The notes beneath the pieces were generated by a model, which searched no databases, was not told the origin of the DNA, and worked only from the letters and a program-made list of their open reading frames with translations. From Candidatus Doudnabacteria bacterium (lineage in GTDB: Bacteria; Patescibacteriota; Doudnabacteria; UBA920): a DNA stretch of 64,000 bases. This document shows positions 6,586 through 28,398 of the stretch, in pieces. The stretch covers positions 93,210-157,209 of the forward strand of contig PLYC01000013.1 of assembly GCA_003151625.1 (NCBI GenBank), in the 5' to 3' direction. Position 1 is the stretch's first letter. The number at the start of each line of letters is the position of its first letter. A program made the translations under genes and the position numbers.

Positions 6586-6642
6586 ATAAAAAATTAATCA
6601 GGCCGAATTGCCTAATAGGCATTTGGCGGAAATATCAAACCC

Positions 6643-7023: not shown

Positions 7024-7245
7024 ATAAAATAAGGGTTTGGCTTAGGGCTATATGTCCTTTGTCTTACCCTTATTTTTTTCTTCCCGCTCAACAAAGTCGT
7101 CAATAAGCGTATTTATTATTTGGTATCAGCCATCCCTAAACTTTTTTATTTCTTCGTCTGTTAGGCTTCCAAACTCTTTTCCGAGTATCTCCCTGCATTT
7201 TTCTATGGATAGCATATTTTTTGCTCGCACCCGGTGAGGACAAGA

Positions 7246-7977
7246 TTATTTTGGTTCCTGCTCACTAACAACCAAGGTTTTTAGCAATTCTTCAATCTGC
7301 TGGCGGTCTTTTGGGAAATGGTAAAAAGGATGGGAGGCAATAAGCTTTTGAATCCATTGTTTTTGAATAATATAGGTATTTTCCAGAGGTTTAAGTCCAA
7401 AAGTTATTTTAGCTCTGGAAAACACTATTGTCGGTTTTATATAAATTTCTACTCCCAGTTTTTCTTTAAGAAAGTTATGCAGGGACAAAGCCTGGGACTT
7501 GGATTGCCATAAAAAGTTTTTTTCCAGCAGTTGGCCATATCTGGTTAGCTGGGAGCCATTAAAGCCTATTATGCCTTTGTGGCTTTTAACTTCTATGGTA
7601 AATATTCCGGTTGGCCCGACAAGCACAAAGTCTATATTCCCCTGCTCTGGCTTAATAACGACATCGGCAAATACGGAATAAGCGTCCGGTAGTTTTTTAA
7701 GTTCATAGGCAACTACATCTTCCCCTTTTAACCCCTGAAAAAATTTGTCAGCCATCCCGTCCTCTTTGTCAATTAGTTTTTTTATAACCCAAAAGAGCGG
7801 AGCAAAAACAATAATAGAAATTATTATGTAGCCGGGCTGGGATGTATGGCCGACTAATTTGGTAAAATATTCGTATAAAGCCCAAAGGCCGACTAAAGCG
7901 TATAACAAAACCGCGACCACAGAAACCCAGGCCATACGGATGGAATACTTACTTCGGTTGCCAAAAAATTGAGCCAT
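7246..7977 (-). CDS. NERD (nuclease-related domain) membrane protein
   Basis: N-terminal TM helices then DVVIKPEQGNIDFVLVGPTGIFTIEVKSHKG, NERD-like. Confidence 0.55.
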   Translation of the reverse strand: MAQFFGNRSKYSIRMAWVSVVAVLLYALVGLWALYEYFTKLVGHTSQPGYIIISIIVFAPLFWVIKKLIDKEDGMADKFFQGLKGEDVVAYELKKLPDAYSVFADVVIKPEQGNIDFVLVGPTGIFTIEVKSHKGIIGFNGSQLTRYGQLLEKNFLWQSKSQALSLHNFLKEKLGVEIYIKPTIVFSRAKITFGLKPLENTYIIQKQWIQKLIASHPFYHFPKDRQQIEELLKTLVVSEQEPK

Positions 7978-7981
7978 ATAG

Positions 7982-8566
7982 TTACAGGCTCGGTCCCCAA
8001 TAAATTACGTGGTGAATCTGGGTATGCCATAGCCAGCCGGTCTCCATTCCCAAATTATAAAACATTTTCCACATAAAGAACCTGATTAATAAGTTTGGTG
8101 TCATACACGCCGACTTTTCCCGGCCATTAGAAAAAAGTATATATACTTTGCTAAAATCGGAATCGTCGTATCTCATAGTAACATCATACGTGGCTCCGAA
8201 GTAGCTAACGGTTAGGCCGAGCTGTGGCCCGGACAAAAAAATAAAATGATGGCCGTTACTGTCAAAAGTGTTTAGGTAAAGCCCGTATTTCTTTTCCAAA
8301 TCAGCCACATTTGCCGGTATCTGGCTGGGATTGCTATAGCTTACGTAGTTTAAATAACCAATCGTGGCTTTAACCCCGTGCTTCCTGGCCTCTTGGGCGA
8401 CTTGAATGAAGTTGTAAGACTTGGACAGGTATATTTTGTCGTCTACGATGCTTTTGTAATCGCAAAATGCAAGACTGCCAAAGTCAAAAACGCAATAGTT
8501 AATTGCGGGTAAAACTATAAAAATTATTAACAGCCAAAACCAAACTTTTTTGTAATATTTCTTCAC
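7982..8566 (-). CDS. hypothetical secreted/membrane-anchored protein
   Basis: N-terminal hydrophobic segment. 194 aa. Confidence 0.45.
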   Translation of the reverse strand: MKKYYKKVWFWLLIIFIVLPAINYCVFDFGSLAFCDYKSIVDDKIYLSKSYNFIQVAQEARKHGVKATIGYLNYVSYSNPSQIPANVADLEKKYGLYLNTFDSNGHHFIFLSGPQLGLTVSYFGATYDVTMRYDDSDFSKVYILFSNGREKSACMTPNLLIRFFMWKMFYNLGMETGWLWHTQIHHVIYWGPSL

Positions 8567-10158: not shown

Positions 10159-10806
10159 TTAGGATGCCAATAATTTTGTTACCCAATCGTTGAAATGTGG
10201 GCAATTATTTCTAATTTCCTGCAAACCGGTTCTGGAAGCTATTAGGCTGCCAAAAAGTGGCTTTCTATAGTTTGGGAAAAGTTTTATAAGTCTTTTGCTT
10301 GGATGAGTTTCCGGACCTTGGTTTATTTCCTCGGGAGTTTTAAAGGCATCTCTTATATTTTGCACATCCTGTTTTTTATTCCGATCCAAAGTATCGGAAA
10401 TAACTTCTGGTACTGAAAAAAGCAGGCCTTCAAACTCGTGAAGTTGCAAATAAGGAATGAAGCGTTCATTATTGATGTCGTTAGCAAAAGCCTGTTCCGC
10501 CGCTTTAACTTTATCGTAGCAAGAACCTTCATTTTTCCAATTTGGAAAGTCGGCAGGCAGGCCATAAAAATCCATCATCGTGGTTACCGCGGTAACATTT
10601 GAGTCCCTGAATAATTTTTTTGCATCGCGCTTTATGGCTCCATACGAACTTACGCCGCCCTTAAAATTTGGACTATTTTTAAGTATTTTTGTATTAATTA
10701 TGGTTGGAATTAAAAACAGACCCTGCTCCTGGAAGGTAGGGTTTAAAATATCTTTTACGAACCGTTCCTCAGTTTGTCCTTCGACTAAGATAAAAATTCT
10801 TTTCAT
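10159..10806 (-). CDS. DUF4276-like protein (partner of AAA_21 ATPase; possibly Toprim/OLD-like)
   Basis: N-terminal MKRIFILVEGQTEERFVKDIL, a characteristic DUF4276 start. 8-nt gap to the ATPase gene. Confidence 0.55.
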   Translation of the reverse strand: MKRIFILVEGQTEERFVKDILNPTFQEQGLFLIPTIINTKILKNSPNFKGGVSSYGAIKRDAKKLFRDSNVTAVTTMMDFYGLPADFPNWKNEGSCYDKVKAAEQAFANDINNERFIPYLQLHEFEGLLFSVPEVISDTLDRNKKQDVQNIRDAFKTPEEINQGPETHPSKRLIKLFPNYRKPLFGSLIASRTGLQEIRNNCPHFNDWVTKLLAS

Positions 10807-10813
10807 AAGTCAG

Positions 10814-11911
10814 TTATGGCCTGCCGCCAATAATATTTTTTTCCCACATATCTCCCAGTCCATAATCTTCAAGCCAAGAACCGAGTTCGTTAGAAGTGAG
10901 TCTTCGAAAAGAAGACTGTCCGTCGCTTCTGTCCACCACAATAATAGATTCGGGTTTTAGCTGATTTATCAAAGTTACGGATTGGGTTGAAACAATAACC
11001 TGTGTTCTGGTCGCGGCGCTTTGCAAAAGATTGGCAAGCAAATTTATTGCCGCGGGATGCAAACCTAATTCAGGTTCATCAAGCAAAATTGTGGTCGGCA
11101 ATTTTTCCGCCGGTTGTAATAATAAAGTTGCCAGGCATATAAAACGCAATGTGCCGTCAGACAATGAAGCTGCATTAAAATAGCTGTCAGAATTTTTGTG
11201 CTGCCATTCCAACTGAATACTGTCCGGTTTTAAGGGCGATGTTCTTAATACGAAAGAGTTAAAAAACGGAGCAATTAATTTAACGGTGTCAGTTATATTT
11301 TTAAAATCATAAGGATATTTTTTTTCCAATAAATACAAATAAGCCGCTAAATTTGAAGCGTCCGGTTTAAAAGAAGCGTTGTCATTTATTGGCCCGGTTT
11401 TTTTTAGTAAAGCTGTGTCGCTGGTATCATGGAAATGATACAGTCTCCAACTTCTTATGCTGGCCAAAGTGCTGGCAGAAACATTTCCCGCTTCTGCCGC
11501 GAGCCCCGTTTCCTTACGGTCGGGAGAGAGTGTATTAAATTCAAACGGTTTGGTGTAATTAGGTCCTAAATAAGAACCCCCTTCTTCTTCAAAAAATAAA
11601 GAATCATCAGCCGTAGGAACCAACTTTAGCCAGTAGGAATTGGGACCAAAATCAACTTTAACTTCCAAGGCGTGAGTAGTTTTTGAACCAAAATAAAGAA
11701 GCGTGTTGGCGCCTCCAGATTTTCTGATAAGGTTTTGCATGCGGCCTTCGGCCATTTCTCCCAAAAATTTGAAGAGTGAAATAAAGTTTGATTTTCCCGC
11801 GCCATTGGAACCAATCATTACATTTAAATCGCCCAATTTAAAATTTTCCAACGACTTGATGGATTTATAGCCTTTTATTGTAATATCAGTAACCTTATTT
11901 TGGTATACCAT
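10814..11911 (-). CDS. ABC-type AAA_21/SMC-like ATPase
   Basis: Walker A GSNGAGKSN, Walker B/D-loop LLDEPELGLHP, and VIVSTQS. Confidence 0.8.
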   Translation of the reverse strand: MVYQNKVTDITIKGYKSIKSLENFKLGDLNVMIGSNGAGKSNFISLFKFLGEMAEGRMQNLIRKSGGANTLLYFGSKTTHALEVKVDFGPNSYWLKLVPTADDSLFFEEEGGSYLGPNYTKPFEFNTLSPDRKETGLAAEAGNVSASTLASIRSWRLYHFHDTSDTALLKKTGPINDNASFKPDASNLAAYLYLLEKKYPYDFKNITDTVKLIAPFFNSFVLRTSPLKPDSIQLEWQHKNSDSYFNAASLSDGTLRFICLATLLLQPAEKLPTTILLDEPELGLHPAAINLLANLLQSAATRTQVIVSTQSVTLINQLKPESIIVVDRSDGQSSFRRLTSNELGSWLEDYGLGDMWEKNIIGGRP

Positions 11912-12214: not shown

Positions 12215-12550
12215 TCATTCGCCTCTATTTTGTGTTTCGTATATCTCCCAGGCATAATCAAACGGCAGTAGTGAACATAAAAAATTGCCGTCCTTGTCCT
12301 TTGGGGTATATTCATCCACTATATCCAAAATTGCACTTTGCTCATCTTCCGAAAGTTCTCTCCCAATTAGATCCTGCAACTCAAGGAACTGTTCATCGAT
12401 AATGGCAACATTCCCTTCAATCCGCTGATCTTCATCTGTGGCTTGCTTCTGAGCAACTTTGTGCTCCACCATAAGTGTCCAAAACACATCCTCAAGAGTC
12501 ATCTTAGGAAGCATATTATCTTGTGCAAATTTTTTTGCTTTTTTCTTCAT
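12215..12550 (-). CDS. hypothetical acidic protein (last gene of the 8-gene operon)
   Basis: 111-aa ORF, 11 nt after the upstream gene. Confidence 0.45.
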   Translation of the reverse strand: MKKKAKKFAQDNMLPKMTLEDVFWTLMVEHKVAQKQATDEDQRIEGNVAIIDEQFLELQDLIGRELSEDEQSAILDIVDEYTPKDKDGNFLCSLLPFDYAWEIYETQNRGE

Positions 12551-12561
12551 ATTTATGATTT

Positions 12562-12873
12562 TTAATTTGGCAGCCTACCTTCTTTTTCTCTGATTAGATA
12601 TGTTTCTGACTTTAAACAACGGTTTATAATACCTTCCATATGCCAGTAGGTGTAACCGTTATAGTCAAAATATACCTGCTTTGTTTGATAAAAATGGGAT
12701 TCGTAACCGAAGGTGTCGATGTGATGCGCGAGTGCCAGGAACAAATCGTTATCAACCCGCTCCTGGACAATATACTCGTGAGGCCAGGTTTTTGCGTACG
12801 TGACTGCAAAAATCCACTTTGAATTGTCTATAAATTGTTTTAACTTTTCAGAAAGTTTACCATTCTTGGTCAT
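12562..12873 (-). CDS. hypothetical protein
   Basis: 103 aa. 4-nt overlap with the upstream gene. Confidence 0.45.
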   Translation of the reverse strand: MTKNGKLSEKLKQFIDNSKWIFAVTYAKTWPHEYIVQERVDNDLFLALAHHIDTFGYESHFYQTKQVYFDYNGYTYWHMEGIINRCLKSETYLIREKEGRLPN

Positions 12874-13979
12874 TCCGTCGCCTCCAAAGATTTTTTAATC
12901 CATAAACAGACTTCAAAAAATTCACGCCTGGCGTCTTCATTGGCGATAACCCGGAGAGGCAACTTTAGGCCGTTGTAGCCGTCAACATTATCCACATGTA
13001 CCGTGGCACCTTTGATTGAGCTAAGCCGTTTTAATATTTCGGAACGTTTTACCGGGTTATCAAAAGGGTATGGGCTTTTATTTCCCTGGTGGGGAGCATT
13101 CCAAGAAACATTCCCATCTCCGGTAACCGATAAAGGATAAAAACCTTTTTTACCCTCGGGATAATAACACAAGAAAAAACCGCCGCGCTGGCTCGTGGTC
13201 CATTCAATTTCTATACCATTGTCGTTTGCCCAATCAATGATCTTTTGTGCCGCTATCACTTCTTCTGCGCCAATTTCTTTCAAACGCTCTTTAAATATAT
13301 CCCAGTCCCATAATTTCTTATCACGAGTTGTTGTCTTCATGTCCTTTTTGACCTCGGCTCCAAATATTCTCGGAATAATTATCTCATACGTTTCGTGTTT
13401 ATAATACTCAAGCTCAACAGCATATATATCAAACTGGCTGTTTTGGTTAACGTAAAGTATTAAGTCCTTAAGTCTGGCATCAAGACTGTCCATCAATATG
13501 ACAAAATGAAGAGCACCGTCACTCAAATTATCGCGGACGGAATTCAGCAATTGGGCTATTTCTTCGTTAGATAGGCCAAAGTGTTCCTGAAGTTTTTGAT
13601 TCAGCGAAATCTTGAATGTTTTTTGAACATTCGCCTCAAGTATTGAGGAAAATTCACTAAAATCATTTGAGTGCTTCCAAAGAGCAGCACCATAATCCAG
13701 TGATTGAGCTACTACGGTTCGCTTATCGGGATTTTTGTACAGTTTAGTTTCAATAATATATATTTCTCCCTCTCTATCAACGCCGATTGCGTCAATTGGG
13801 CCGCTGTGCGTCGGGAACTCCCTAGCCAGGATAAGAAGCCGTATATCTTCTTTGATGTCATATAATGGGACACTGTCGGGATTATCGTAAATATATTTCT
13901 GAAGATAATCTTCTTTATCAAAAGTTGATTTTTCTATTTTTTTAGCATTTTTGCCGTTTTTAGAAATAATAATCGCCAT
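12870..13979 (-). CDS. hypothetical protein, possible PD-(D/E)xK nuclease fold
   Basis: GPIDAIGVDREGEIYIIETKLYK, a D..E.K-like arrangement. 369 aa. Confidence 0.4.
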   Translation of the reverse strand: MAIIISKNGKNAKKIEKSTFDKEDYLQKYIYDNPDSVPLYDIKEDIRLLILAREFPTHSGPIDAIGVDREGEIYIIETKLYKNPDKRTVVAQSLDYGAALWKHSNDFSEFSSILEANVQKTFKISLNQKLQEHFGLSNEEIAQLLNSVRDNLSDGALHFVILMDSLDARLKDLILYVNQNSQFDIYAVELEYYKHETYEIIIPRIFGAEVKKDMKTTTRDKKLWDWDIFKERLKEIGAEEVIAAQKIIDWANDNGIEIEWTTSQRGGFFLCYYPEGKKGFYPLSVTGDGNVSWNAPHQGNKSPYPFDNPVKRSEILKRLSSIKGATVHVDNVDGYNGLKLPLRVIANEDARREFFEVCLWIKKSLEATE

Positions 13980-14060: not shown

Positions 14061-15419
14061 TTATTCAAGAAAATCAGCTATCTTTTCTTGATTTATGATT
14101 CCATTTGCAAGAAAAAGGTCTTCTAATTGCGAATGGTCAACGCCAGCATGTGAAAGTTTATGAGCAATGATATTAAGTAAATCATTTGCTTTCATTAAAA
14201 CTACAGGGCATCGTGTTTCCTTATAAATATCTTTTATGGAGCTATCCAACGATTGGTTGTCAGAAAAGTCTGATGAGACAATCAGAAATGAAAATTTTTT
14301 AATCCGCCTTTTTTGGAGCTCTTTTTGATATTTTTTTATATATTCACTAATTTCTCTATCCCCAGTGCCAATAGAATATCCTTTTTCTCTAGCCTTTGCG
14401 TCATAAACAATGGCATAATAGTATTCAGAGTTTGCATCTGTCGAATAAGCGATGCCGTCTGGTTCTCTGCCTTTTCCTTGCCCGAGACTTTCCACTTCAT
14501 AACCCAAAATCCCAAATGCATAACCCAATTTTATTTCAAAAGCCCTTTCCGGTTTGAGATTCATTTTTTTTGACCATTCTGTTTCTTTATTTAAGGCAAG
14601 TTCTTTAAGGTCACTGATAATAGGCGGCACCCATTCTCTGACCAATTGATTAGGTTTTTGTTTAATGGGTGATTCCTTTTTGGTTTCTGCCTCTATTATT
14701 TCATCCGTTCTTATTGGCTCTTTAAATCCACCCCAAGGAGCTTGGTCATCTTCCGCATCAACTTTCCATAAATCTTTCACGCCAGACGAATATAGAAAAG
14801 ATGTTAATGTCCGTGGTGAGTATTTTATACCTAACTTTCTAAAACCAGCAATTAAATCATCGTTTGATTGGACAATCTTTTCCCCTATAGGGTCTTTTTC
14901 AAAATCCACGTGGCTTTCAAAGCCAAAGTATTCCGTGGCCTTTTTACGGTCTCTCAGCGAGATAACGCTGACACTGGAAGATGGGTTATAGGCAAAAATC
15001 ATAGCACTGACCGCGTTGCCGCGTGGTCCGGTTAAGTTGTTGTGGTTACCTTCATTTAACTTATATAGTTCATCAATTAATTTAGCTTTTTCTTCACCCA
15101 CGGTTTTGAATATTTGATCTAGTTGTTTATGCAGTTCTGGCTTATTTTTAATTTCATTAAACATCCGACGCCAAGCCCCTTGTGTGATCATAGTCCTCGC
15201 TACTGCTTCACTTTCTCTGGTATTGCCCTTCCCAGCCCTGTCCAATATTCTGATTATTCCATCCAATTCTAAATCATCCAAATCCTCTTTGGAATTGGTC
15301 ATAATCTTACCATTCCAAAAGTCCCTAAACTCCCTGCTTTGTGCTACCCATAAAGCGTCCTTAGACTCGGAGTCATAATTTTTTATAAACTCGTTAAATA
15401 ATTCTATGATTTTGTCCAT
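14061..15419 (-). CDS. hypothetical protein (C-terminal possible PD-(D/E)xK-like motif)
   Basis: EPDGIAYS...YYYAIVYDAKAR. 452 aa. No confident family. Confidence 0.4.
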   Translation of the reverse strand: MDKIIELFNEFIKNYDSESKDALWVAQSREFRDFWNGKIMTNSKEDLDDLELDGIIRILDRAGKGNTRESEAVARTMITQGAWRRMFNEIKNKPELHKQLDQIFKTVGEEKAKLIDELYKLNEGNHNNLTGPRGNAVSAMIFAYNPSSSVSVISLRDRKKATEYFGFESHVDFEKDPIGEKIVQSNDDLIAGFRKLGIKYSPRTLTSFLYSSGVKDLWKVDAEDDQAPWGGFKEPIRTDEIIEAETKKESPIKQKPNQLVREWVPPIISDLKELALNKETEWSKKMNLKPERAFEIKLGYAFGILGYEVESLGQGKGREPDGIAYSTDANSEYYYAIVYDAKAREKGYSIGTGDREISEYIKKYQKELQKRRIKKFSFLIVSSDFSDNQSLDSSIKDIYKETRCPVVLMKANDLLNIIAHKLSHAGVDHSQLEDLFLANGIINQEKIADFLE

Positions 15420-15433: not shown

Positions 15434-16177
15434 TTATGTAACTTCTACTAGCTGAGATTTTTTTCTATACTGGCAGAATTCGCATTCCGGGTTAGGAGCA
15501 GGGAGACTGGCTTGGTTTAAGCAATCGTGAATATTAAAAATTGTTTGCTCTACCCAGGAGTCCGAGCCGGTGTAAGGGATTAGTTTAGCGTCAAATTCCA
15601 ATACGCCATTAAAGCCTGCCCTGTCTTTCTTGCCGTTCACATAAAAAAAGTAACCGATGTTAGAAACTTTTAAACCATTTTGTCTTAACAGCCACTGGTA
15701 GACTTCCATTTGCCTGCGGTAGGAGTTATGCCACTTGGCATCCGTTAACTCTACCTCACCCTCTTTGCTGGTGGCCTTATAATCCACCACAATGTATTCT
15801 CCTTCCGAGTTTTTCCACAAATCATCAATGGCTCCAAAAATTAACATATTGGTTTTTTTGTGGAGGCACTGCACGCCGGTAAAATTATGCCGCCACTGGT
15901 CTAAAAGCTCATGAGCTACAGGCACAGCGTCCAGGCCGTAGGCTTCCATAAGCGGATGTTTGGTTCCATTGGCGCGGTAGACATCAAATTCTTTTTTCAA
16001 CAAAGCGTCCACGGCAACGTTCAAAGTAAAAGCCGGACCGGATGGTCGGGAAATTCCAAGCCGTCTGTCCATATAAAAACAGCGCGGGCAGTCTAAAAAC
16101 ATGTCAATCTTGCTCCGGCTTAGCTTAAAGGGCTTGTCGGCTTCGGGCTCGTATAGGTTGCTTCTTTTATAGGCCAT
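15434..16177 (-). CDS. Cas4-like/RecB-family PD-(D/E)xK nuclease with 4-Cys cluster
   Basis: N-terminal DCPRCFY, IVVDYKAT (D..K), C-terminal CEFCQY. 247 aa. Confidence 0.6.
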   Translation of the reverse strand: MAYKRSNLYEPEADKPFKLSRSKIDMFLDCPRCFYMDRRLGISRPSGPAFTLNVAVDALLKKEFDVYRANGTKHPLMEAYGLDAVPVAHELLDQWRHNFTGVQCLHKKTNMLIFGAIDDLWKNSEGEYIVVDYKATSKEGEVELTDAKWHNSYRRQMEVYQWLLRQNGLKVSNIGYFFYVNGKKDRAGFNGVLEFDAKLIPYTGSDSWVEQTIFNIHDCLNQASLPAPNPECEFCQYRKKSQLVEVT

Positions 16178-16185: not shown

Positions 16186-18771
16186 TTAATTTGAAAGATT
16201 TAATTTATCGCGTCTTTTCTCCAATGCTTTTTTGCCACCTTCCAAAATCTCAATAATTTCATCTCTGATTGCCGGGTTTTCAATAGCCCCTGATTCGTAA
16301 GTAAAGTTTGGATTTTTACCCGCAGTTTTATTTGAGACAACGACTTCCTCGCTGTCTCCGCAAACCACTAGATTTGCGTTATGGGATGCTATTATTATTT
16401 GCCGCTTTATTTTTTCGGCTTTTAGAAAGTCCACAATATGTTTTGAAATAGCTTTTGCATCCAAATCATCCTCTGGTTGATCCAGTAATACCGGGTAATT
16501 ATAATCGTCAAATTTAAAAATAAACTCTAATAAAGCTAGCATCTTTTCGCCATCGGACATATTGACAAACTCATCGCCATTTCGGCTTTTAATACTTTTC
16601 TGAAAGTCTACCTTAAACCTATTCCTAAATAATTCCATGAGCAAAATTTCTTCATTTTTTCCGGACTTCAAAATTAATTGACCTGTTAAAATACCCAGCG
16701 TTAGCTGTTTAAGAAGTAATGAGAATTCAATTTTTTTGTAGTCCCATTGCTCTGGCTCTCTTAGAAATGTATTTGCTTTTTCGTTTTTTGGATTTTCTTT
16801 AAAAGAAATAGAATTGTGGTAATTAATATTGTCTTCAATAAATTTTTTAAATGATTGCGTATCAAAACTAGTGGTAATGTCCACTTTTGAGAAAGCCAAG
16901 CTCCCCAGGTTTATGCTTAAACTTTTGAACTGCTCATTAAACTGGCTATACTTTTCTACAATTTTGCTAAGTCTGTCCGAGTAAGAGGCCCTTAACTTTA
17001 TAATTTCTTCGTCTGTTTCATTAATGGTTTTTAAAATTTCGGCTTTTTCTTGCAAGGTCTTTGTTAACATTAACAGCGCTTGATGTTTTTCTACCTTGGT
17101 TTGTAGAGGCTTTAACTCCGTGTCCAGTTCTTTAATTTTCTTTTTAACGTTTTCCTTTGAATTTACTAATTCCGTAATCTCTTTTTCAATAAAGTCCTTT
17201 TTAAAAACTTCGTCAGATTCTTTAAGTTTGGCCTCCATCTTTATTACATATTTTTGCGAAAATTCAAATTCCAAAATCTTGTCCGCTGAAATTACTTCTT
17301 CCTGCTTCAACATTTTAAAAGAAGCTAAGTCCTTGTCTATAATCTTAATTTCGCGTTCTTGCGCCGCCTTGTCAGAATTTATTTTTTTATAATTTTCAAG
17401 TTCCTTATTTGTGACTTCACTATTACTTTTCCTGGTCAAATTAAGGCTTGCCTCAATTTTCAAAATTTCTTTTTCCAAATCTTCCTTTTTCCCAAGTTTT
17501 TTTAATTTTTCTCCCTTTTCCCTGCCGTTATTCCTTATTGCTAGAAGTTCTCTGACAAGAGATGTTATAGACAATACGTTTTCGTCTTCAAATTTTTTGT
17601 AATTTTGTAGCGCATTTTTAAAGTTGTCTTTATTTTCAAAAAGATTTGACAAAAAGTTGTCAAAATTAACATTTTTTTCATACACCAAGTCCCCTAGGTA
17701 TTTTTGAGGAATAAAAAGAACTCCTTTATCTTCTGTTTCTTTTAAAGAACTAACTTTGCCATCTCTCCAAAATAGTTTGAAATTCTTTAACTGCAGGAAG
17801 TCGGCACCATCAACTCCTTTCAGCCTGCACTGAACTGGATCAATAGAAAAGGCAATATTTCTTAAAAGATTTGATTTCCCTGTGGCCCGACTCCCAATTA
17901 CTGAGTTTAAATTTTGATTAAAGTAAACTATTTGTTTACTACCGTCATGATTTGTGAATTCCGCTCTGTCAATAATACAATAATCGGATTTTTCCTCTGG
18001 TTTTAATTCTTGAATTTTAACCCTACATTCTGGTTCATAAATTATTTGTTTTAAACCTTCAAAAGTTGGATCGGCTTTTATCCAGCAATTTTGTTTAAGG
18101 GAGTATTTTTTGACATTATGGTTATCGGAACAAATAACCATTGGAAAAAAGCCAATCTTCTTAAAGACAGTATCCCTATAGTCGGCCTGGTCTTTCTCCT
18201 GCCCTAACTCAAAAATTTGCACTTCGCTCGCTATGTCTTTTTTCTCAGCCATTTTTACAGGCAGAGAGTTAGTAATTTTTTCTATGGAATTCGACTTCCT
18301 GCCCGCATGGATTGAGACAACGCCGCCGAGTCTTTTTATTAAGTTCGCAGTATCTTTTAAATCGCAGTAAATTTCGTTATCCTTTTGTCCTGATTGTCTT
18401 TGCGATGCAATCTTGGCTTGGGATTGTATTTCGTTCCAAATGTAATTTACATCCGAATTTTCCGGGAAAATGCCAATAAAGTGGACCGGCTCGCTCCCCC
18501 GGCTGTCTGAGCAAAATTCTATTCCTGGCAAAACAGTCAAATCATCACCGCCAGCCTTTTTTAATTTTTCAATAACCTGGGAGTCAATAATGTGATGATC
18601 GGTAATCGCAACAACTTTAATTTGTTGCTTTTTTAAGGCTTCAGCAATTTCCTCTGAAGTGTTGGCTTTATTGTCATGGTCGTAGGAGCTGGGAGTGTGA
18701 AAGTGTAGATCCCATTTTCTCCATTCGGAACCTCTAAAGTATTTTTGCATAGTTTTTATAGTAACGGCCAA
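16186..18771 (-). CDS. PHP-domain + SMC/ABC-like ATPase fusion protein (Ppl-like)
   Basis: N-terminal WDLHFHTPSSYDHD...AITDHH (PHP metal-binding motifs). Walker A GSRATGKSN, long coiled-coil, Walker B LLDQPEDDLD. 861 aa. Confidence 0.7.
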   Translation of the reverse strand: MAVTIKTMQKYFRGSEWRKWDLHFHTPSSYDHDNKANTSEEIAEALKKQQIKVVAITDHHIIDSQVIEKLKKAGGDDLTVLPGIEFCSDSRGSEPVHFIGIFPENSDVNYIWNEIQSQAKIASQRQSGQKDNEIYCDLKDTANLIKRLGGVVSIHAGRKSNSIEKITNSLPVKMAEKKDIASEVQIFELGQEKDQADYRDTVFKKIGFFPMVICSDNHNVKKYSLKQNCWIKADPTFEGLKQIIYEPECRVKIQELKPEEKSDYCIIDRAEFTNHDGSKQIVYFNQNLNSVIGSRATGKSNLLRNIAFSIDPVQCRLKGVDGADFLQLKNFKLFWRDGKVSSLKETEDKGVLFIPQKYLGDLVYEKNVNFDNFLSNLFENKDNFKNALQNYKKFEDENVLSITSLVRELLAIRNNGREKGEKLKKLGKKEDLEKEILKIEASLNLTRKSNSEVTNKELENYKKINSDKAAQEREIKIIDKDLASFKMLKQEEVISADKILEFEFSQKYVIKMEAKLKESDEVFKKDFIEKEITELVNSKENVKKKIKELDTELKPLQTKVEKHQALLMLTKTLQEKAEILKTINETDEEIIKLRASYSDRLSKIVEKYSQFNEQFKSLSINLGSLAFSKVDITTSFDTQSFKKFIEDNINYHNSISFKENPKNEKANTFLREPEQWDYKKIEFSLLLKQLTLGILTGQLILKSGKNEEILLMELFRNRFKVDFQKSIKSRNGDEFVNMSDGEKMLALLEFIFKFDDYNYPVLLDQPEDDLDAKAISKHIVDFLKAEKIKRQIIIASHNANLVVCGDSEEVVVSNKTAGKNPNFTYESGAIENPAIRDEIIEILEGGKKALEKRRDKLNLSN

Positions 18772-21700
18772 TTAGAAATAAGCTGATCAATTTCTTTCAT
18801 AATGCGGATGGTTTCGCGGAGGGAGGCGACGATTTTCATATAGTGCTTTAAGTCGTCCAAAGACAGGCTACGCTCGGCCTTTTTGCGATCCTTTAGCCAC
18901 TTCTCACAAACCTGATAGCCGCCAATCATAAACTCCCAAACTTCTTTTTCCACACCTTCAAAATACTGGCCGGGATTTACGTAAACTCGTCGGTCTTTAG
19001 CTGAATATTTAACCTCGGTAACTTTCCAGTCTTCCAAACTTTCCGGCTTCTCACCCCCAAGACTAATCCCCCATTTGTCCGAATCGTCAAAAATTGTCTT
19101 GGACTGATCAAACGGATTTTCTCCGAGCAAATGCAAATTTACTAACTCGTTACCTTTGGCAACTAATTTTTTAAACAGTTCTTTATTGGAAGTTAGCGGT
19201 AAGCGCGGAAAATCTATTTTCAACTGTTCGGCATACCTGATCCGGTAAGTCGGGCAATGAAAAATAGCATAAGTATAGTAAAACACATCTTCCGGTCCAA
19301 AAGTTTTTTCCAAATCACCTCGCCCATCGCTAATAAAGCTTATCCCAAGTTTTTGAGAACATTCCTTAGTAAATTTTTCGGAAAAATTTACTTTTTTGTT
19401 TAGTTTCCCAAAAAGATTAGATTGTGTTGAGTCGGAGTATAGGTATAGCGGAAAGATATAAGAGCCTATTGCTGAATCTAGATTATGCATATCACACAAT
19501 AATGATGTAACAAAAAAATGGTTATTTTTCTGATTCTGGATATTTCGATGTAGGGTCAGCCCTAAATTATTTTTATTAAGGAAATGTTTCATTATATCTT
19601 GTCTAGGCCAGTCTAACAATTCCTTGTTGTATATTAAATAACGGTTGTCAAAAGCTCTGAATTGAATTTTAATAATCTCATTATTATAATCTATCTTCTT
19701 TTTTCTCGCTTCTGATAAAAGCCATCCTCGCGTATCGCCCTTTAAATACTTACCTGATCTTTTCCCAGAAGAAAAAAATCTGACCCTAATAGTATCATCA
19801 CTATTATTTAAATTAAAAAAATAATCTAACTTTTTTAACAAATCTTTTCTTTCAAATCCATAAACAAGCTGATCCCTTGAAGATTGTATGCCTGTATTGC
19901 AAGAATCAAATACATCCTTTACAGAATTTATTTGGTTATAGTCATCTTCGTGATGGACTACTTTAAAAATGTAATGTGGAGCGTTTGGTTCAATTTCAGT
20001 CCACTCTGTATTATTAACTTCATGAGTTAAAAGGAACTCAAATTTATTTTCTTTTAGGCCAAAAAGTTCAGAATAAAAAATATTCTTTGCTATTTTTCTT
20101 TCGTTTTTGATAAAAAATGAAATTACAACACCTGTTTGAATTGGAAAAACATTTTCATCCTTTGTACCATCAGGCGCCTTTTCATTTTTGACCGAACTGC
20201 CATGTAAATTAAGAATATAAATTTCATCGAAATAATTCAATAAATTATAGCGCATTCCTCTAAAAGTTGGGTTATCCAGAAAATTGTGATTTGTTATAAA
20301 AGATAAAATTCCATGTCCTATATCTGCAATCTTCCATTGAGCAAAACGAATAAATTTTACATAATCATCTTGAAGCCAATGCTTTTTTTCTCCAAAATGT
20401 TTACCATCAATATATTTATAGTCCTCAATAAGTTTATTAATCCATTCTCCTTTATTAGCCGATACCCCGGAATATGGCGGGTTGCCGATTATAGCTAAAA
20501 TTGGCGCGTCTTTTTTGACTTTACGCGCGGCTTCGCTTTCTTCAGCGATTGAGGGAAAGGCTATAGAACCAAAATCAGTTGTAGCTTTGGCCTGTTTTTG
20601 GTAAGCGTTGGGATCATCAAGCGTATTTGCCAAATAAACTTTTAAGCGGTCTTTGTCGCCGTCGCCCTTTGCCATCTCAAAATCAAAACCCAAATCTTCT
20701 AAAAGCAAAGTAAGTTTTAAATGGGCAATGGCGTAAGGTGCGACTAAAAGTTCAAAGCCATAAAAATGTTTTAAAATGTGGTCAACAACTACCCTATTAA
20801 ATTCCTTAGTTACCATTTCTGGGCCCAAGGTGTTATTTTGCTTTTGAACTGCGGAGTGAATTTGCTGAATGGCGGACATTAAGAATGTGCCGGTGCCAGT
20901 GGCCGGGTCAAGTAAATGGACGCTTTCATCAGCCAAACCTTTTTCTTTGCCGAATTTTTCTTTTAAGATGAAATCTACACTACGGACAATGTAATCTACT
21001 ACCGGCTTTGGCGTGTAGTAGACACCTCGCGCTTCGCGTTCCTTAGGGTCGTATTCGTTCAAAAACGGCTCGTAGAAATGAATAACCGGGTCCTCGCCGA
21101 CTTTATGCTCTCGTAACTTTAACTCAATTTTAGCCATCTCGGCCGCGTTCAGCTGGTCTATTAGGGCGGTGGTGGCCTGGTGAATATTAGGAATAACTTG
21201 GGAGACTTTTTTAATCAAAGAATATAAGTCGGCCAAAATAGGAACGCTTGCTGGTAAATAATCCATTGCCGTGGTTAAGGTTAGAACATCGGACTTGCCG
21301 CGCTTGGTATGCTCCAAAGAGGCCAGGAATAAAGAATACGCCACAGTTTCGGCCACCATATTGGCAAACTGGTGCGGCTCTATATTTTGGATTAAAGTTT
21401 TCTCAAAAGTTTCTTTTAGCTTAACCAAGTCCGAAGTTTCGTCGGCATCCTTAAAGGCTTCTTCCACTTGATTAGACAAAAGCTTAGTCTTTTTTGCCAA
21501 GGCCAACGCCAGCTGTTTAGTGGTACGCGCTTCATAAGCTTTGCCGGAAAAGAATTGATGCAAGATGTCAATCAGGTTTTGCTCCTCGCCGGTGGTAAAA
21601 TTTGCAACATCAAAAATTATTTCTTTTATTTTTACCGGCTTGCCTTCGTCACCCCATTGCCAAAGCTGCCACTGTTTAAAATTGGTGAATAGAATATTTT

Positions 21701-22004
21701 CTAAAGCGTCCTTATATTTTTCAAACTGCTTATTGAATTTAGGACTGTCTAAGGAATCTTCCGGTAGTTTTACTTCCACCCAGCCAACCAGCCGGTCTTT
21801 TCGCCGTACAGTAACGTCAGGAAAGCCCACGCCACCGGCAACGGCTTTAGCGCTCTCTTCGGCCGTGGCAAATATGTCTTTGGACTTTTCCAATTCGGCG
21901 AGCTCCTGCAGGAAGTTAGTTAAAGCCGGGTAAAAGGATCGTTCGGTGCCGTGGTCTTTAATCCTTAAAAAACTTTGTTGGAATTTTTCTATTGGTATGT
22001 TCAT
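18756..22004 (-). CDS. N6-adenine DNA methyltransferase, Type IIG/IIL(MmeI)-like or PglX-like; possible N-terminal PD-ExK endonuclease segment
   Basis: Motif I LLDPATGTGTFL and motif IV IIGNPPYSG. N-terminal FPDVTV..GWVEVK. 1082 aa. 16-nt overlap with the downstream gene. Confidence 0.8.
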   Translation of the reverse strand: MNIPIEKFQQSFLRIKDHGTERSFYPALTNFLQELAELEKSKDIFATAEESAKAVAGGVGFPDVTVRRKDRLVGWVEVKLPEDSLDSPKFNKQFEKYKDALENILFTNFKQWQLWQWGDEGKPVKIKEIIFDVANFTTGEEQNLIDILHQFFSGKAYEARTTKQLALALAKKTKLLSNQVEEAFKDADETSDLVKLKETFEKTLIQNIEPHQFANMVAETVAYSLFLASLEHTKRGKSDVLTLTTAMDYLPASVPILADLYSLIKKVSQVIPNIHQATTALIDQLNAAEMAKIELKLREHKVGEDPVIHFYEPFLNEYDPKEREARGVYYTPKPVVDYIVRSVDFILKEKFGKEKGLADESVHLLDPATGTGTFLMSAIQQIHSAVQKQNNTLGPEMVTKEFNRVVVDHILKHFYGFELLVAPYAIAHLKLTLLLEDLGFDFEMAKGDGDKDRLKVYLANTLDDPNAYQKQAKATTDFGSIAFPSIAEESEAARKVKKDAPILAIIGNPPYSGVSANKGEWINKLIEDYKYIDGKHFGEKKHWLQDDYVKFIRFAQWKIADIGHGILSFITNHNFLDNPTFRGMRYNLLNYFDEIYILNLHGSSVKNEKAPDGTKDENVFPIQTGVVISFFIKNERKIAKNIFYSELFGLKENKFEFLLTHEVNNTEWTEIEPNAPHYIFKVVHHEDDYNQINSVKDVFDSCNTGIQSSRDQLVYGFERKDLLKKLDYFFNLNNSDDTIRVRFFSSGKRSGKYLKGDTRGWLLSEARKKKIDYNNEIIKIQFRAFDNRYLIYNKELLDWPRQDIMKHFLNKNNLGLTLHRNIQNQKNNHFFVTSLLCDMHNLDSAIGSYIFPLYLYSDSTQSNLFGKLNKKVNFSEKFTKECSQKLGISFISDGRGDLEKTFGPEDVFYYTYAIFHCPTYRIRYAEQLKIDFPRLPLTSNKELFKKLVAKGNELVNLHLLGENPFDQSKTIFDDSDKWGISLGGEKPESLEDWKVTEVKYSAKDRRVYVNPGQYFEGVEKEVWEFMIGGYQVCEKWLKDRKKAERSLSLDDLKHYMKIVASLRETIRIMKEIDQLISNWPLL

Positions 22005-25000
22005 TTAGGCAGTTATTTTAAATTGTATTTTTGCTAAATTTTTATACTCAAAAGTCATTTCCAGTTTATTCCTTAAATCCATAACTTTTTGGTCTTTCTG
22101 TAAAAACTGTTCCTGCTGCATTTTCATATACTTATTTTGGGCTTTAAATAAATCTTTTTGTTTTTTATCTTTTTCTTCCAATATTTGCTGGCGCTCATGA
22201 AAGCCGGTAGTCTTAGATGAAATTTTTAACTTTTTACCTATTTCCTTAAGCTCCTGCTCGCGCAAGTCCATCTCCTGTTTGTATTTTAAAATGGATTCAT
22301 CCACAAAACGGTCAAGATTCTGCATTTCTTGATCCACATAACCCTCATTTTCAGCTTTAATTTCCTGTTTAAAGTCGTTCCCGTTTTTTTGTATTAAGTC
22401 CGACAATTCGTCCCGAAGCCTTTCGTGCATATTTTTTTCTTCCGTCACTTCCAACTCAAACAGTTTTTCAGCTCTTTTTGGCTCAATTTTTTGCCACTGC
22501 CCGTCTTTAAATACCAACGAGCTTACAATAATTTTTTCAAAAGTTTCTTCGGTGTTGTTTATGGTTTTCCGGCTGCAGTTTAAGACATCAACCGAAATCT
22601 GGCCGTCCAGGCCAATAAATTCTTCCAAGACTTTCCTGTGGTCCTGTGGGTGCTTAAAAGTTAAAGACCATGAACCGGACAATTTTTTGTCCTGATCAAT
22701 GTTGTGCCTGACAAAATTGGTTTCCAGGTTAATTGGCAAAATACCCTCTTCCCTTTCGGCTTCAGAGAGTCTTCCTAAACAAAATTTACCGCCGGAATAT
22801 TCAAAAATTTTGTCACTTTTATAGTTAATGGTTTTACCTAAAGTAAAATTTAAGTAAGCCTTAAGCTGGGCGTCAAACTTGTTCAAAGAATCGTCAAAAG
22901 TCTGCTGGCGAATTTTTAGTTTTTGCCTGATTTCTTCGTCAAAATGTTGAATAACCTTTTTTTGCGTGTCTTCAATCTTTTCCTCAATAAAGTCGCCTAA
23001 GTCCAGCTGTAACTGTTTAAAGCCCTGGGCTATTTGCTGTTCAGTCCGGCACTTACGGTAAATTTCCAAAATTTTTCTTTCAAAATCCAAGCCCGCTCCC
23101 AAACCTCCTAAAGCAACTTCCCGGACCTCGTAACCGTCATCGGTTAATTTTTCAGTTCCTAAAACTTGATCGCTAAAATCAAACAGGTTACCGAATAATT
23201 TGATTTTTTCCTGCAACAATTCGTAAACTCTTTGGTCAGCGTAGTTTTTTTTATTTAAAAAGTTTACTACCAAGACATCCAACTTTTGGCCGTACCTGTG
23301 GCATCTGCCGATGCGCTGTTCAATGCGCTGCGGATTCCACGGTAAATCATAGTTAATAACAATGTTGGCAAACTGTAAGTTTATACCCTCGGCTCCGGCT
23401 TCTGTGGTAATTAAAATCGCCTTTGGCAGTTCTTTAAACTTCCAAACCAAGGCTTTTCTGATGTTGATGCTTTTAGAACCTCTGGCGGCTTCATCGGGAA
23501 AAGTCTGTTCCCATTCCGCGTAAATGTCTTTTGATCGTTTGGAGGCGTTGCTGCCATTAAATAAAACTAATTCGTACCCGCTGGCGCTTAAAAGTTTTTC
23601 CAAATGGTCCTGGGTACGCCTGGACTCAGTAAAGATTACCGCTTTTTGCGGCCAATGTTGCTTTTCGGCGTGAATGAAAACTTTTTTTAATACTTTGACC
23701 AATGCCTGACTTTTTTGGTTGACATCAATACTGCAAGCCAAATAGTAATATTCCAAAACATCCTTAAGTTCACGAAAGATTTCTTCTTTACTAAATTTAT
23801 GGTCTATTTCCCGCTCATTTTTCTTTTCCTGCGTTCCGTCAACTTTTTCGTCCTCTTGTAAGTCGTCCGATTCTTGGGTTTCTTCTTCCACTTCACCGGC
23901 TTTTATTTCCGCGTCTTCAAATCCCGGCAAAACTTCCTGAATCAAATCTTTTGTAGTTTCGGCAGGTTGAAGTTGGATGTCCGGCAGTGCCTTGCTGTAC
24001 TTGGTTTGAATTTCTAATTTTTGTTGCTTTATGTAGGCCTGGACATCTTCAAAAGTTACATCCTGCTCCTGCTGCAGTCTTTTAGCTAGAAAATGGACAA
24101 TCTTTTCCAACGTTCCGGCAATCGCGAACGAGGAACTGGCCAATATTTTGCGGTAAACCAATTCCATCATGTTTCTTTGGGTCGCGAGAGTGGAAGCTAA
24201 AATCGGCCTGCGTAAATATTCGCTTACCAGGTCATAAAGCTCTATTTCGTTGTCGTTCGGCGCGAAGTCTTCGGTGTGGCTAAAACGATTGGTAAAACTT
24301 ACAAATCCTCTAACCTGTTTTCTTAAGGTTCGGGTTAAAACGCCGCCGCTGACTTCCCCATTTTCAATAGTGCCCATTAGCCGTTCCTTGAGCTGGCCTA
24401 ATGAATCATATTTTTTGTGTCTTTTTACCGGATTAACAAAAAGGTTTCTAAAAGAATATTCTGTTCCTAAATAATTTTCTTCCAAAAAACTGGTCAAACC
24501 AAAAAGCTCCATTAAATTATTTTGTAATGGCGTCGCGGTCATTAAGATTTTAGGCCTGCTTAAAATAGCATCCTTAACTTTTTTTGCGACTTTATTTGTT
24601 TTTCTCCAAACGTTCCTTAAGCGATGGGCTTCATCAATTACAACCAAATCCCAGGCAACGTCTTTTACAAATTTTTCATACCGGTAAGCAAAATTATGGG
24701 ACGCTATATATATTCCATTTTCGGAAAGCGGATTTAACTTGTCTGTTTTGTCCTGTAAAATTTTTAACTGGGCCGAATCAACAATACTGCTTTCAAGATT
24801 AAAGCGGAGCGTGAGTTCATCTTGCCATTGAGTTCTTAAGGATGCCGGAACCAAAATTAGAATATGCTGCCTGCCTTCCACCCATAACTGATTGATTATT
24901 AGCCCGGCTTCTATGGTTTTTCCCAAGCCCACTTCATCAGCCAAAATCGCGCCTCTGGAAAGAGGACTTTTAAACGCAAAAACCGCCGCATCGACCTGGT

Positions 25001-25115
25001 GTGGGTTTAAGTCAATATTGGCGGCACGAATTACATTATTCAATTTTTCCGGGTCGCTGATTGATTTTTTTTCAGTCAGCTTGTGGGCTAAATAAAGCCT
25101 TTGAATTTGGGACAT
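22005..25115 (-). CDS. SNF2-family (SF2) helicase/translocase
   Basis: ILADEVGLGKTIEAG (motif I), VVIDEAHRLRN (motif II), MTATPLQNN (motif III), QRIGRCHRYGQ (motif VI). 1036 aa with a C-terminal coiled-coil extension. Confidence 0.85.
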   Translation of the reverse strand: MSQIQRLYLAHKLTEKKSISDPEKLNNVIRAANIDLNPHQVDAAVFAFKSPLSRGAILADEVGLGKTIEAGLIINQLWVEGRQHILILVPASLRTQWQDELTLRFNLESSIVDSAQLKILQDKTDKLNPLSENGIYIASHNFAYRYEKFVKDVAWDLVVIDEAHRLRNVWRKTNKVAKKVKDAILSRPKILMTATPLQNNLMELFGLTSFLEENYLGTEYSFRNLFVNPVKRHKKYDSLGQLKERLMGTIENGEVSGGVLTRTLRKQVRGFVSFTNRFSHTEDFAPNDNEIELYDLVSEYLRRPILASTLATQRNMMELVYRKILASSSFAIAGTLEKIVHFLAKRLQQEQDVTFEDVQAYIKQQKLEIQTKYSKALPDIQLQPAETTKDLIQEVLPGFEDAEIKAGEVEEETQESDDLQEDEKVDGTQEKKNEREIDHKFSKEEIFRELKDVLEYYYLACSIDVNQKSQALVKVLKKVFIHAEKQHWPQKAVIFTESRRTQDHLEKLLSASGYELVLFNGSNASKRSKDIYAEWEQTFPDEAARGSKSINIRKALVWKFKELPKAILITTEAGAEGINLQFANIVINYDLPWNPQRIEQRIGRCHRYGQKLDVLVVNFLNKKNYADQRVYELLQEKIKLFGNLFDFSDQVLGTEKLTDDGYEVREVALGGLGAGLDFERKILEIYRKCRTEQQIAQGFKQLQLDLGDFIEEKIEDTQKKVIQHFDEEIRQKLKIRQQTFDDSLNKFDAQLKAYLNFTLGKTINYKSDKIFEYSGGKFCLGRLSEAEREEGILPINLETNFVRHNIDQDKKLSGSWSLTFKHPQDHRKVLEEFIGLDGQISVDVLNCSRKTINNTEETFEKIIVSSLVFKDGQWQKIEPKRAEKLFELEVTEEKNMHERLRDELSDLIQKNGNDFKQEIKAENEGYVDQEMQNLDRFVDESILKYKQEMDLREQELKEIGKKLKISSKTTGFHERQQILEEKDKKQKDLFKAQNKYMKMQQEQFLQKDQKVMDLRNKLEMTFEYKNLAKIQFKITA

Positions 25116-25252: not shown

Positions 25253-26158
25253 TTATAGATTATTCAGCGGGTGTTTCGTGATTTGTGCCCGCAGATGTTC
25301 AGCCGTCGCGCTTAAATAAATTGTCGTGGTCTTGATGTCCGAATGGCCCATCATTTTGCTTAGGCTGTAAATGTCGCACCCACCTTCCAACATTAAAACC
25401 GCAAACGAATGTCTAAGTTTGTGAATTCCAAAGTTTATTTTGCTGGCTTTTTTTATAATCTCCACTAAGTTGCGCAGGCCCATTTGGGTAAAACCCATAT
25501 TCCGGTTTAACGAAGCAAAGAATTCCGGGCAGGTTTTATGTATTCTCTTTCTTTCAACCACGTATCTTTTTAAAGTTTCCGCCAGGGCAAAACAGATTGG
25601 AATCATTCTGTCTTTGTTGCCTTTCCCCTGCCGGACAAAGATTGTAAGGTTTTCCAAGTCTACATCCGCGAATTTTAAGTTTAGCAATTCGCCTTTGCGG
25701 AGCCCGGCCATTATAAATGTGGCAAAAATTGCGTGGTTGCGGTAACGCAGGTATTTATATTGGTACGGGTAATTGTAGACCACTTCCAGCAGTTTCATTG
25801 TCTGCTGTTTTGTCAGCTTGGGTGGCAGCCGCTTTTCTAACTTTGGAATTTCTATTTTCTCCGCGTAATTTTCAGGCATGTATTTCTCTTTGACGCACCA
25901 GCGGAAAAACACAACCAGACTTTTAATAAAGTTAATGTAGGTATTTGTACTCCAATTTCGTTCTGTGCGGCCATAGAAAAACAGCTTCCGGATATTCTCT
26001 TCGTTTATCTGCTCAAACTCGGTGACATTGCAATATTTGCAGTAATAGTTAATAACAAACCTATACCGTCTGATTGTGGCTTTGGCGTATCCTCGTATAA
26101 ACGAGGAATAGTCATAGAACTTTAGGGCCGCTAATTGTATGTCCATATATACCTCCAA
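25253..26158 (-). CDS. tyrosine recombinase/integrase adjacent to tRNA
   Basis: HKLRHSFAVLMLEGGCDIYSLSKMMGHSDIKTTTIYL catalytic box. 301 aa. ~40 bp from the tRNA 3' end. Confidence 0.85.
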   Translation of the reverse strand: MEVYMDIQLAALKFYDYSSFIRGYAKATIRRYRFVINYYCKYCNVTEFEQINEENIRKLFFYGRTERNWSTNTYINFIKSLVVFFRWCVKEKYMPENYAEKIEIPKLEKRLPPKLTKQQTMKLLEVVYNYPYQYKYLRYRNHAIFATFIMAGLRKGELLNLKFADVDLENLTIFVRQGKGNKDRMIPICFALAETLKRYVVERKRIHKTCPEFFASLNRNMGFTQMGLRNLVEIIKKASKINFGIHKLRHSFAVLMLEGGCDIYSLSKMMGHSDIKTTTIYLSATAEHLRAQITKHPLNNL

Positions 26159-27816: not shown

Positions 27817-28398
27817 CTAGTTTCCCAGTACAAATCTAGCAAAACGTTTTACCACTACCTTCTCCCCCATTTTTGCAACGGCTTCGCCGATTAAATCTTT
27901 GACTTTAATGTCGGGATTTTTTGCAAATGGTTGCTCCATTAAGCAGGCTTCTTCAAAATATTTGGCAAGTTTACCTTCCAAAATTTTGTTAACCATATCT
28001 TCCGGTTTACCCTTAATTTGTTCTTTGTAGATTTCCTTTTCTTTATCCACAACTTCTACCGGGACATCGGCTGTAGAAACATACAACGGGTTTGCGGCTG
28101 CTATATGCAAAGCCAATTCTTTGGCCAAATGCTTAAAATCGTCCGTACGAGCCACAAAGTCTGTTTCGCAGTTAATTTCCACCAAAACGCCCACGCGGCT
28201 GCCCGGATGGATATAGGCTTCCACAAGGCCTTCATTGGCAACACGGTCGGCCTTTTTGCCGGCTTTAAGTGTGCCTTTTTTGCGCAAAATTTCCACGGCC
28301 TTGGTCTTGTCGCCCCCGGCCTCGGTTAATGCGCCCTTAATTTCCATCATCCCAGCCCCGGTTTGTTCGCGGAGTTCTTTTATTAGATTTTTAGACAT
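27817..28398 (-). CDS. tsf: translation elongation factor Ts
   Basis: MSKNLIKELREQTGAGMMEIKGAL UBA-like N-terminus. 193 aa. Sits downstream of rpsB. Confidence 0.9.
   Translation of the reverse strand: MSKNLIKELREQTGAGMMEIKGALTEAGGDKTKAVEILRKKGTLKAGKKADRVANEGLVEAYIHPGSRVGVLVEINCETDFVARTDDFKHLAKELALHIAAANPLYVSTADVPVEVVDKEKEIYKEQIKGKPEDMVNKILEGKLAKYFEEACLMEQPFAKNPDIKVKDLIGEAVAKMGEKVVVKRFARFVLGN

Follow-up and report, generated by a model that had tools for sequence, protein, structure and literature searches.

The gene at positions 16186-18750, on the minus strand of a 64,000-nt window of Candidatus Doudnabacteria DNA (contig PLYC01000013.1 of assembly GCA_003151625.1; the window is the whole stretch analysed, and positions refer to it), encodes a protein of the TrlF family, referred to below as TrlF. 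We read it, with a probability of roughly 0.68, as an autonomous, self-contained Ppl-like nucleotide-gated exonuclease module embedded in a restriction operon. It was taken for an autonomous cargo module because two reciprocal surveys of loci, one of relatives of the adjacent methylase and one of relatives of TrlF, both spoke against its being part of the restriction system, and because the overall pattern is that of genetic embedding, in which independent defence genes reside within BREX, DISARM, Type I restriction-modification and Hma operons, as documented by Payne et al. (bioRxiv 10.1101/2024.01.29.577857).

TrlF consists of a PHP phosphoesterase domain and an SMC/Rad50-type ATP-binding cassette (ABC) ATPase head split by a coiled coil. 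The metal-dependent PHP domain (residues ~8-245; 18016-18729, minus strand, as for all parts of this protein) was identified by Pfam and Foldseek; the Pfam PHP match, over residues 14-115, is marginal by sequence (26.8 bits, cut-off 26.4). The N-lobe of the ABC head (residues ~258-372; 17635-17979), assigned from motif conservation and SMC/Rad50 matches, carries Walker A GSRATGKS (286-293) and the Q-loop Q349, while the C-lobe (residues ~610-854; 16189-16923), assigned from motif conservation, carries MSDGEK (731-736), Walker B LLD757 followed by Q758-P-E760, D764 and H790. An antiparallel coiled coil (residues ~375-609, apex ~483-498; 16924-17628), located by AlphaFold2 secondary structure and Foldseek, lies between the lobes and is predicted to be an insertion of ~2 × 110 residues in the head. 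At ~235 aa (helices 375-482 up and 499-609 down) it is shorter than the ~300 aa given for it in a previous, sequence-only reading of this DNA, and its apex (483-498) contains no cysteine, CxxC zinc hook or hinge domain in the sequence. The Pfam families SMC_N and AAA_21 also match the protein.

The AlphaFold2 model, built on a 65-sequence alignment (predicted local distance difference test score, pLDDT, 86.2; predicted template modelling score, pTM, 0.70), has an alpha/beta PHP-type domain, a split ABC head and two long helical arms. Compared with the PDB by Foldseek, this model matched heads bearing coiled coils from SMC, MukB, JetC, Rad50, RecN and AriA (E 1e-8 to 1e-4); a further match was to 4gx8, the PHP domain of DNA polymerase III alpha (E 5e-5, 216 columns). 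A profile search of PDB sequences returned no solved TrlF or Ppl structure, only SMC, Rad50 and AriA heads and one PHP protein with weak E-values. The fusion of a PHP domain to an SMC/ABC-type ATPase had already been proposed in the sequence-only reading, with profile and Foldseek searches suggested as a check; Pfam, NCBIfam, the AlphaFold2 model and Foldseek all support it, PHP and ATPase matches were both found, and the motifs that had been named (DLHFHT...DH and ITDHH for PHP, GSRATGKSN for Walker A, LLDQPEDD for Walker B) are present in the translation.

Conservation of these motifs was assessed in an alignment of 74 proteins (the window protein, 71 proteins from genomes of many phyla, E. 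coli Ppl and a Klebsiella-type plasmid TrlF). Predicted PHP ligands are retained at D14 (73), H16 (68), H18 (70), D51 (71), E78 (74), D209 (74) and H211 (68), counts that cover seven positions, the middle His ligands not being confidently placed in the alignment. Within the ATPase, G286, G291 and K292 of Walker A (GxxxxGK(S/T)), D757 of Walker B and D764 of the D-loop are invariant (74/74), and Q349 of the Q-loop (73/74) and H790 of the H-loop (72/74) are nearly so. The signature S732-x-G734 has Ser in 65 and Thr in 9 proteins, with Gly in 74/74.

In SMC proteins, Rad50 and ABC transporters the catalytic Glu directly follows the Walker B Asp. This expected Glu is absent from TrlF, and the residue in its place is Gln (Q758 of DQPE; codon 16477-16479) in 74/74 TrlF/Ppl proteins; E760, two residues further on, is likewise invariant and might compensate for the catalytic Glu. 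An ABC head in which this Glu is changed to Gln binds nucleotide and engages, and hydrolyses poorly. In the profile search of PDB sequences, Q758 aligned with the Gln of vLDQIDAALD in an SMC1A head-domain chain, which we take to be an engineered E-to-Q construct, the native sequence being LDEID. DQPE is the natural counterpart of the laboratory E-to-Q trap mutation, and the invariant Gln, taken together with the enzymology of such mutants, suggests that the TrlF head may work as a sensor of nucleotide or as a clamp, not as a fast motor.

Membership of the TrlF family is clear from the NCBIfam model NF045780 ("TrlF family AAA-like ATPase"), which scores 450.9 bits against a cut-off of 350 (E=1.5e-134) and aligns end to end (residues 6-850 with profile positions 1-943 of 944). 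The kinship to Ppl that had been claimed for the protein stands as homology: the PADLOC Ppl model (PDLC02208) matches with E=3e-35, hhalign against E. coli Ppl gives a probability of 99.9% over 758 columns, and BLASTP against the Ppl of an E. coli IncF plasmid gives 26% identity from the PHP domain to Walker A and 33% in the C-terminal lobe. It does not extend to identity with Ppl, since the NCBIfam Ppl equivalog model (NF042955), although matched end to end, gives only 130 bits against a cut-off of 1000, and the protein falls in the TrlF family instead. As judged from these sequence comparisons, TrlF is a distant full-length homologue (a probable paralogue) of Ppl, not an equivalog.

The family is large, with 4,475 proteins at E≤1e-30 and 8,151 at E≤1e-10 in a profile search of 1.84 billion cluster representatives; among the 150 matches listed, all but three (shorter or partial) are full-length proteins of 840-990 aa. 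By tblastn, 1,159 plasmid records match, mostly conjugative enterobacterial plasmids, and only 7 phage records. The plasmid copies are labelled "TrlF family AAA-like ATPase" or "anti-phage protein Ppl" by PGAP, and the best-matching of them are just 25-27% identical to the window protein. Its closest relatives (54-68% identity) come from uncultured bacteria, including several candidate-phyla-radiation genomes (Yanofskybacteria, Nomurabacteria, Saccharimonadales). A literature search on the name TrlF returned just laser-fluorescence papers and an unrelated tropolone-pathway thioesterase also called TrlF.

E. coli Ppl gives phage resistance as a single gene and is an NTP-inhibited 3′-5′ single-stranded DNA exonuclease, the inhibition being due to nucleoside triphosphates (NTPs) bound to the PHP and NTPase domains and the activation to nucleotide depletion together with 3′-OH ends made by phage homing endonucleases (PMC12904381). 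The motifs shared by the two proteins, DQPE included, make a similar logic plausible for TrlF. By analogy with Ppl, nucleotide bound to the ATPase head and the PHP site would hold TrlF in an off-state; infection would lower the nucleotide pool and, with free DNA 3′ ends present, release the enzyme, which may then act as a 3′-5′ exonuclease and degrade phage DNA.

The TrlF gene is intact (854 aa plus stop; start ATG 18750). Its longest open reading frame begins seven residues earlier, at TTG 18771, but when the window protein is aligned with 64 homologues, ATG 18750 shares a single, invariant column with the initial Met of each of them; 16186-18750 was chosen as the gene for this reason. This start lies 5 nt past the TAA (18758-18756) of the methylase gene upstream, and an 8-nt gap separates the TrlF stop from the start of the following gene, which encodes a PD-(D/E)XK nuclease. 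The sequence-only reading had described translational coupling of TrlF to the methylase through a 16-nt overlap. The tight packing remains, whichever start is used, and leaves no room for a separate promoter in the spacer; the overlap itself exists solely with the TTG start and falls away with the start shared by the homologues. TrlF is presumably co-transcribed with the methylase gene. A promoter and terminator scan of the island gave counts that did not differ from those of shuffled sequence and is uninformative on transcription units.

Upstream of TrlF are the two genes of the host system, both on the minus strand: an SNF2-family ATPase (22005-25115; 1036 aa, DrmD-like; Pfam SNF2-rel_dom and Helicase_C, PADLOC DrmD 1.8e-157) and a nuclease-N6-adenine methylase-specificity fusion (18756-22004; 1082 aa; Pfam Type_ISP_C 8.6e-88 and N6_Mtase, PADLOC REase_MTase_IIG 1.1e-229). 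From residue ~226 onward the fusion matches its PDB relatives DrdV (7lo5), LlaGI and LlaBIII. Its N-terminus holds GFPD-x13-E-x-K (D63, E77, K79), a PD...ExK nuclease motif that is invariant in 9 diverse methylase homologues, one of them 27% identical, and reaches at least 95% conservation in a set of 26; sub-threshold VRR_NUC matches fall on this stretch in 5 of the 9. Because of this conserved motif and the repeated VRR_NUC matches, the SNF2-methylase pair is considered to have a nuclease already, and the two proteins resemble a Type ISP-like enzyme divided between two polypeptides, one the motor and the other carrying the nuclease, methylase and specificity parts.

These observations bear directly on the role first proposed for TrlF, in which it would serve the SNF2-methylase system as a dedicated subunit, either effector or nuclease, with its PHP head taking the place of the usual restriction nuclease. 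The 5-nt spacer after the methylase stop favours this role, as do distant TrlF lineages that adjoin SNF2 and Eco57I-like methylase genes (L068, L021, L012 and L049). Against it, a metagenome scan recovered 38 loci (L092-L129) that encode methylase relatives, 23-78% identical to it in their best segment, and a TrlF homologue was found in none of them (0/38), nor was a homologue of the PD-(D/E)XK or FokI-like protein encoded further downstream (also 0/38), while the SNF2-methylase pair itself is conserved: in nearly all loci that extend far enough upstream, SNF2 immediately precedes the methylase, with spacers of 4-7 nt, or 0-7 nt once the window is included. The gene following the methylase differs among the relatives and may be GmrSD, a PDC-M30A-like gene with radical SAM and DUF2779 genes, a nucleotidyltransferase pair, a gene for a 1200-aa protein or small genes. 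In seven loci (L099-L102, L113, L115 and L128; e.g. L101:7029-9470) the same position is taken by an 814-aa LmuB-like, SMC-like ABC ATPase (PADLOC 9.6e-25) with an unassigned C-terminal extension of ~180 aa. The slot downstream of the SNF2-methylase pair is a variable cargo slot. The methylase's own invariant PD-x13-ExK with its weak VRR_NUC matches, the lower G+C content of TrlF (34.4%, as against 39.2% for SNF2 and 38.2% for the methylase) and the settings of the closest TrlF relatives, solo or in type III operons, likewise oppose a subunit role, which we regard as improbable; neither the effector arm of a larger system nor the replacement of a partner nuclease is supported by this comparison.

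In the reciprocal survey, of loci with relatives of TrlF, the nearest relatives with genomic context are solo genes at 62%, 63% and 54% identity, a gene at 65% identity that follows a type III Mod-Res pair, and one at 64% identity within a Mod-TrlF-Res arrangement with spacers of 3 and 6 nt (L133-L135). The survey took in 80 TrlF loci from genomes of many phyla, 69 of them with both flanks present; in 21 of the 69 TrlF stands more than 150 nt from any same-strand neighbour. TrlF occurs alone or beside a DUF2130 gene on enterobacterial and Lactococcus plasmids. A DUF2130 protein (~430 aa) is the immediate same-strand neighbour of TrlF in seven loci (L005, L006, L013, L029, L031, L065 and L072) and is also found beside it on the Lactococcus plasmid pCV56A (L091:5659-9529), a pairing that suggests a two-gene variant in distant lineages. 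Other neighbours include restriction, abortive infection (Abi), Gabija-like and toxin-antitoxin genes.

Several points weigh against TrlF as independent cargo. Restriction components lie within three same-strand genes of TrlF in at least 19 of the 80 loci, and five of the seven type I loci hold TrlF between the methylase/specificity genes and hsdR in the same orientation, so that the linkage could reflect cooperation and not passive embedding. The presence of an SMC-like ATPase in the same slot of seven methylase relatives might be a sign that a partner of this kind is needed, and the spacers of 5 and 8 nt show obligatory co-expression of TrlF with the restriction genes. Defence activity, substrate and polarity are, moreover, extrapolated from a homologue at 26-33% identity, and the literature search found no functional study of any TrlF-family protein.

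One alternative is that TrlF is functionally coupled to restriction without being a subunit, either extending damage from the DNA ends made by the co-encoded restriction enzyme or acting as a PrrC-style back-up that the restriction complex holds latent and that is freed if a phage anti-restriction factor attacks this complex. The recurrent same-orientation embedding argues for this (type I, 7; type III-like, 6; SNF2/IIG-like, 4; C5 methylase, 4, out of 80 loci, some loci being in two classes), as does the Mod-TrlF-Res arrangement with its very short spacers. Ppl, in addition, is reported to require free 3′-OH ends (PMC12904381), and PrrC, an ABC-ATPase-nuclease fusion, invariably occurs with a restriction system, which keeps it silent (PMC3458546, PMC2610378). 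On the other hand, many members of the family have no restriction genes nearby, and from the many solo copies it follows that coupling to restriction is not obligatory; the same slots are also filled by a wide range of unrelated defence genes, as generic embedding predicts, and TrlF does not co-vary with any single restriction type. We treat functional coupling as possible, if unlikely. A bolder form of it, in which type I, type III and SNF2/IIG systems alike have TrlF wired to them, is somewhat more doubtful; TrlF would then either enter DNA at the ends left by the neighbouring restriction enzyme, so that one cut leads to processive degradation, or provide a PrrC-like fallback set off when a phage disables the restriction complex, with the Walker B Gln head as a sensor of nucleotide level.

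A further alternative is that TrlF is a housekeeping DNA-repair enzyme resembling SbcCD or Mre11-Rad50, with PHP replacing the Mre11-type nuclease. PHP domains do serve as proofreading exonucleases in polymerases, and the likeness of the model to Rad50/SMC heads with a coiled coil is consistent with a repair role. Yet TrlF is located in an integrase-bounded island of defence genes, its distribution is patchy and includes the many plasmid records noted above, and its neighbours elsewhere are the restriction, Abi, Gabija-like and toxin-antitoxin genes already described; the lack of a zinc hook and the change of the catalytic Glu to Gln in 74/74 proteins also argue against repair, and we consider this explanation very improbable. 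The autonomous, operon-embedded Ppl-like exonuclease is preferred over it and over both forms of partnership with restriction enzymes.

Read on the minus strand, the host operon comes after a tyrosine integrase gene (25253-26158), in an island of ~10.1-26.2 kb, and all its remaining genes are on the same strand. TrlF is followed by the gene for a 247-aa PD-(D/E)XK (Cas4-like) nuclease (15434-16177; Pfam PDDEXK_1 1.1e-14). A 91%-identical copy of this gene is present in another genome (L088:10001-10756), in an island with AlwI-type restriction genes and GmrSD and without TrlF. Another copy, at 62% identity (L062:7475-8230), comes immediately after a distant TrlF that is located behind a type III Res gene. 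A fixed two-gene module of TrlF and this nuclease was considered, since L062 and L081 show the pairing, and was rejected because the 91%-identical copy occurs without TrlF and the pairing is rare; the nuclease gene is probably another independent cargo gene. Its G+C content is 45.0%, and the differing values among this gene, TrlF, SNF2 and the methylase fit a mosaic origin.

Next in the island is the gene for a 452-aa protein with a FokI cleavage domain (14061-15419; residues 314-439 match, E 4.8e-7), the N-terminal 310 residues of which match nothing in Pfam, PADLOC, NCBIfam or PDB sequences. Three tightly packed genes (12215-13979) encode products of 369, 103 and 111 aa; the first matches PADLOC PDC-S11 (3.6e-18) and has weak NucS and Cas4-like nuclease matches, and the other two match nothing. 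The last pair (10159-11911), an ABC ATPase gene followed by a DUF4276 gene, is a complete one of the HEC-01 type (PADLOC HEC-01A 3.4e-142), a candidate system for which the defining preprint saw no protection against the phages it tested.

Two other identities were considered for the host system. DISARM was rejected, as the DrmD_b model gives 531 bits against a cut-off of 950 and no DrmA, DrmB or DrmC was found among the scanned proteins, the Pfam matches elsewhere in the window being to housekeeping families. The Hma system comprises an m5C methyltransferase and a DUF499 ATPase with a helicase (PMC8565338, PMC12839542); it was rejected because the methylase here is of the N6-adenine type with Type_ISP_C and TrlF is not a DUF499 protein.

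Outside ~10.1-26.2 kb the window is mostly housekeeping, apart from a mobile-element-like region (139-8566) with genes for a large serine recombinase (139-1701), a tyrosine integrase (1885-2835), a ParB-like protein (2825-3808) and a NERD nuclease-related protein (7246-7977). The 64-kb window contains no tRNA genes, and its EF-Ts gene (27817-28398) encodes an unusually short protein of 193 aa; with the candidate-phyla-radiation origin of the closest TrlF homologues, this may point to a Patescibacteria-type source with a small genome.

One use of the analysis is to correct a tempting mis-assignment, in which a nested defence gene is taken for the nuclease subunit of its host operon. That operon is presented here as a Type ISP-like restriction system made of two proteins and having a slot for variable cargo, and TrlF genes recur inside at least four kinds of restriction operon. 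The family-wide replacement of Glu by Gln offers a testable handle on nucleotide sensing. As a discovery it matters little: the protein adds one more member to a large family that has already been curated, its genomic arrangement is of a known kind, and its relative Ppl has a published mechanism.

Among known proteins, the closest in form are the TrlF family members on Klebsiella, Enterobacter, Lactococcus and Levilactobacillus plasmids, which are of the same length class and share the PHP domain, ABC head, coiled coil and motifs. Ppl agrees with the window TrlF in domain order and length, in the Walker B block (LLDQPEDDLD in both) and in the HxH, E and SDxH motifs of PHP, but its coiled coil has no detectable similarity to that of TrlF, and its E. 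coli plasmid copy is free-standing whereas the window TrlF is embedded in an operon. RloC and PrrC are also ABC ATPase-nuclease fusions in or beside restriction-modification operons, and RloC is Rad50-like with a coiled coil (PMC3458546, PMC2610378); their nuclease, however, is a C-terminal anticodon RNase, whereas that of TrlF is a PHP domain at the N-terminus, a zinc hook is present in RloC, and profile searches of TrlF reported no RloC or PrrC match. A TOPRIM (OLD/Gabija-type) domain was not matched in TrlF, the ATPase lobe of which gives only weak AAA_21 and HEC-01A matches.

SbcCD and Mre11-Rad50 likewise combine a Rad50-like head and an inserted coiled coil with a metal-dependent phosphoesterase nuclease. 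TrlF differs from them in having PHP in cis in place of a separate calcineurin-like Mre11/SbcD (a domain scan found no separate phosphoesterase of that type in any gene of the island), in its much shorter coiled coil, and in the absence of the hook and of the catalytic Glu. For the host operon, the nearest known systems are the Type ISP enzymes LlaGI and LlaBIII and the Type IIL enzyme DrdV, to which the methylase and specificity regions of the 1082-aa protein correspond and with which its Type_ISP_C domain is consistent; the difference from Type ISP is that the ATPase motor is a separate SNF2 protein instead of part of a single polypeptide.

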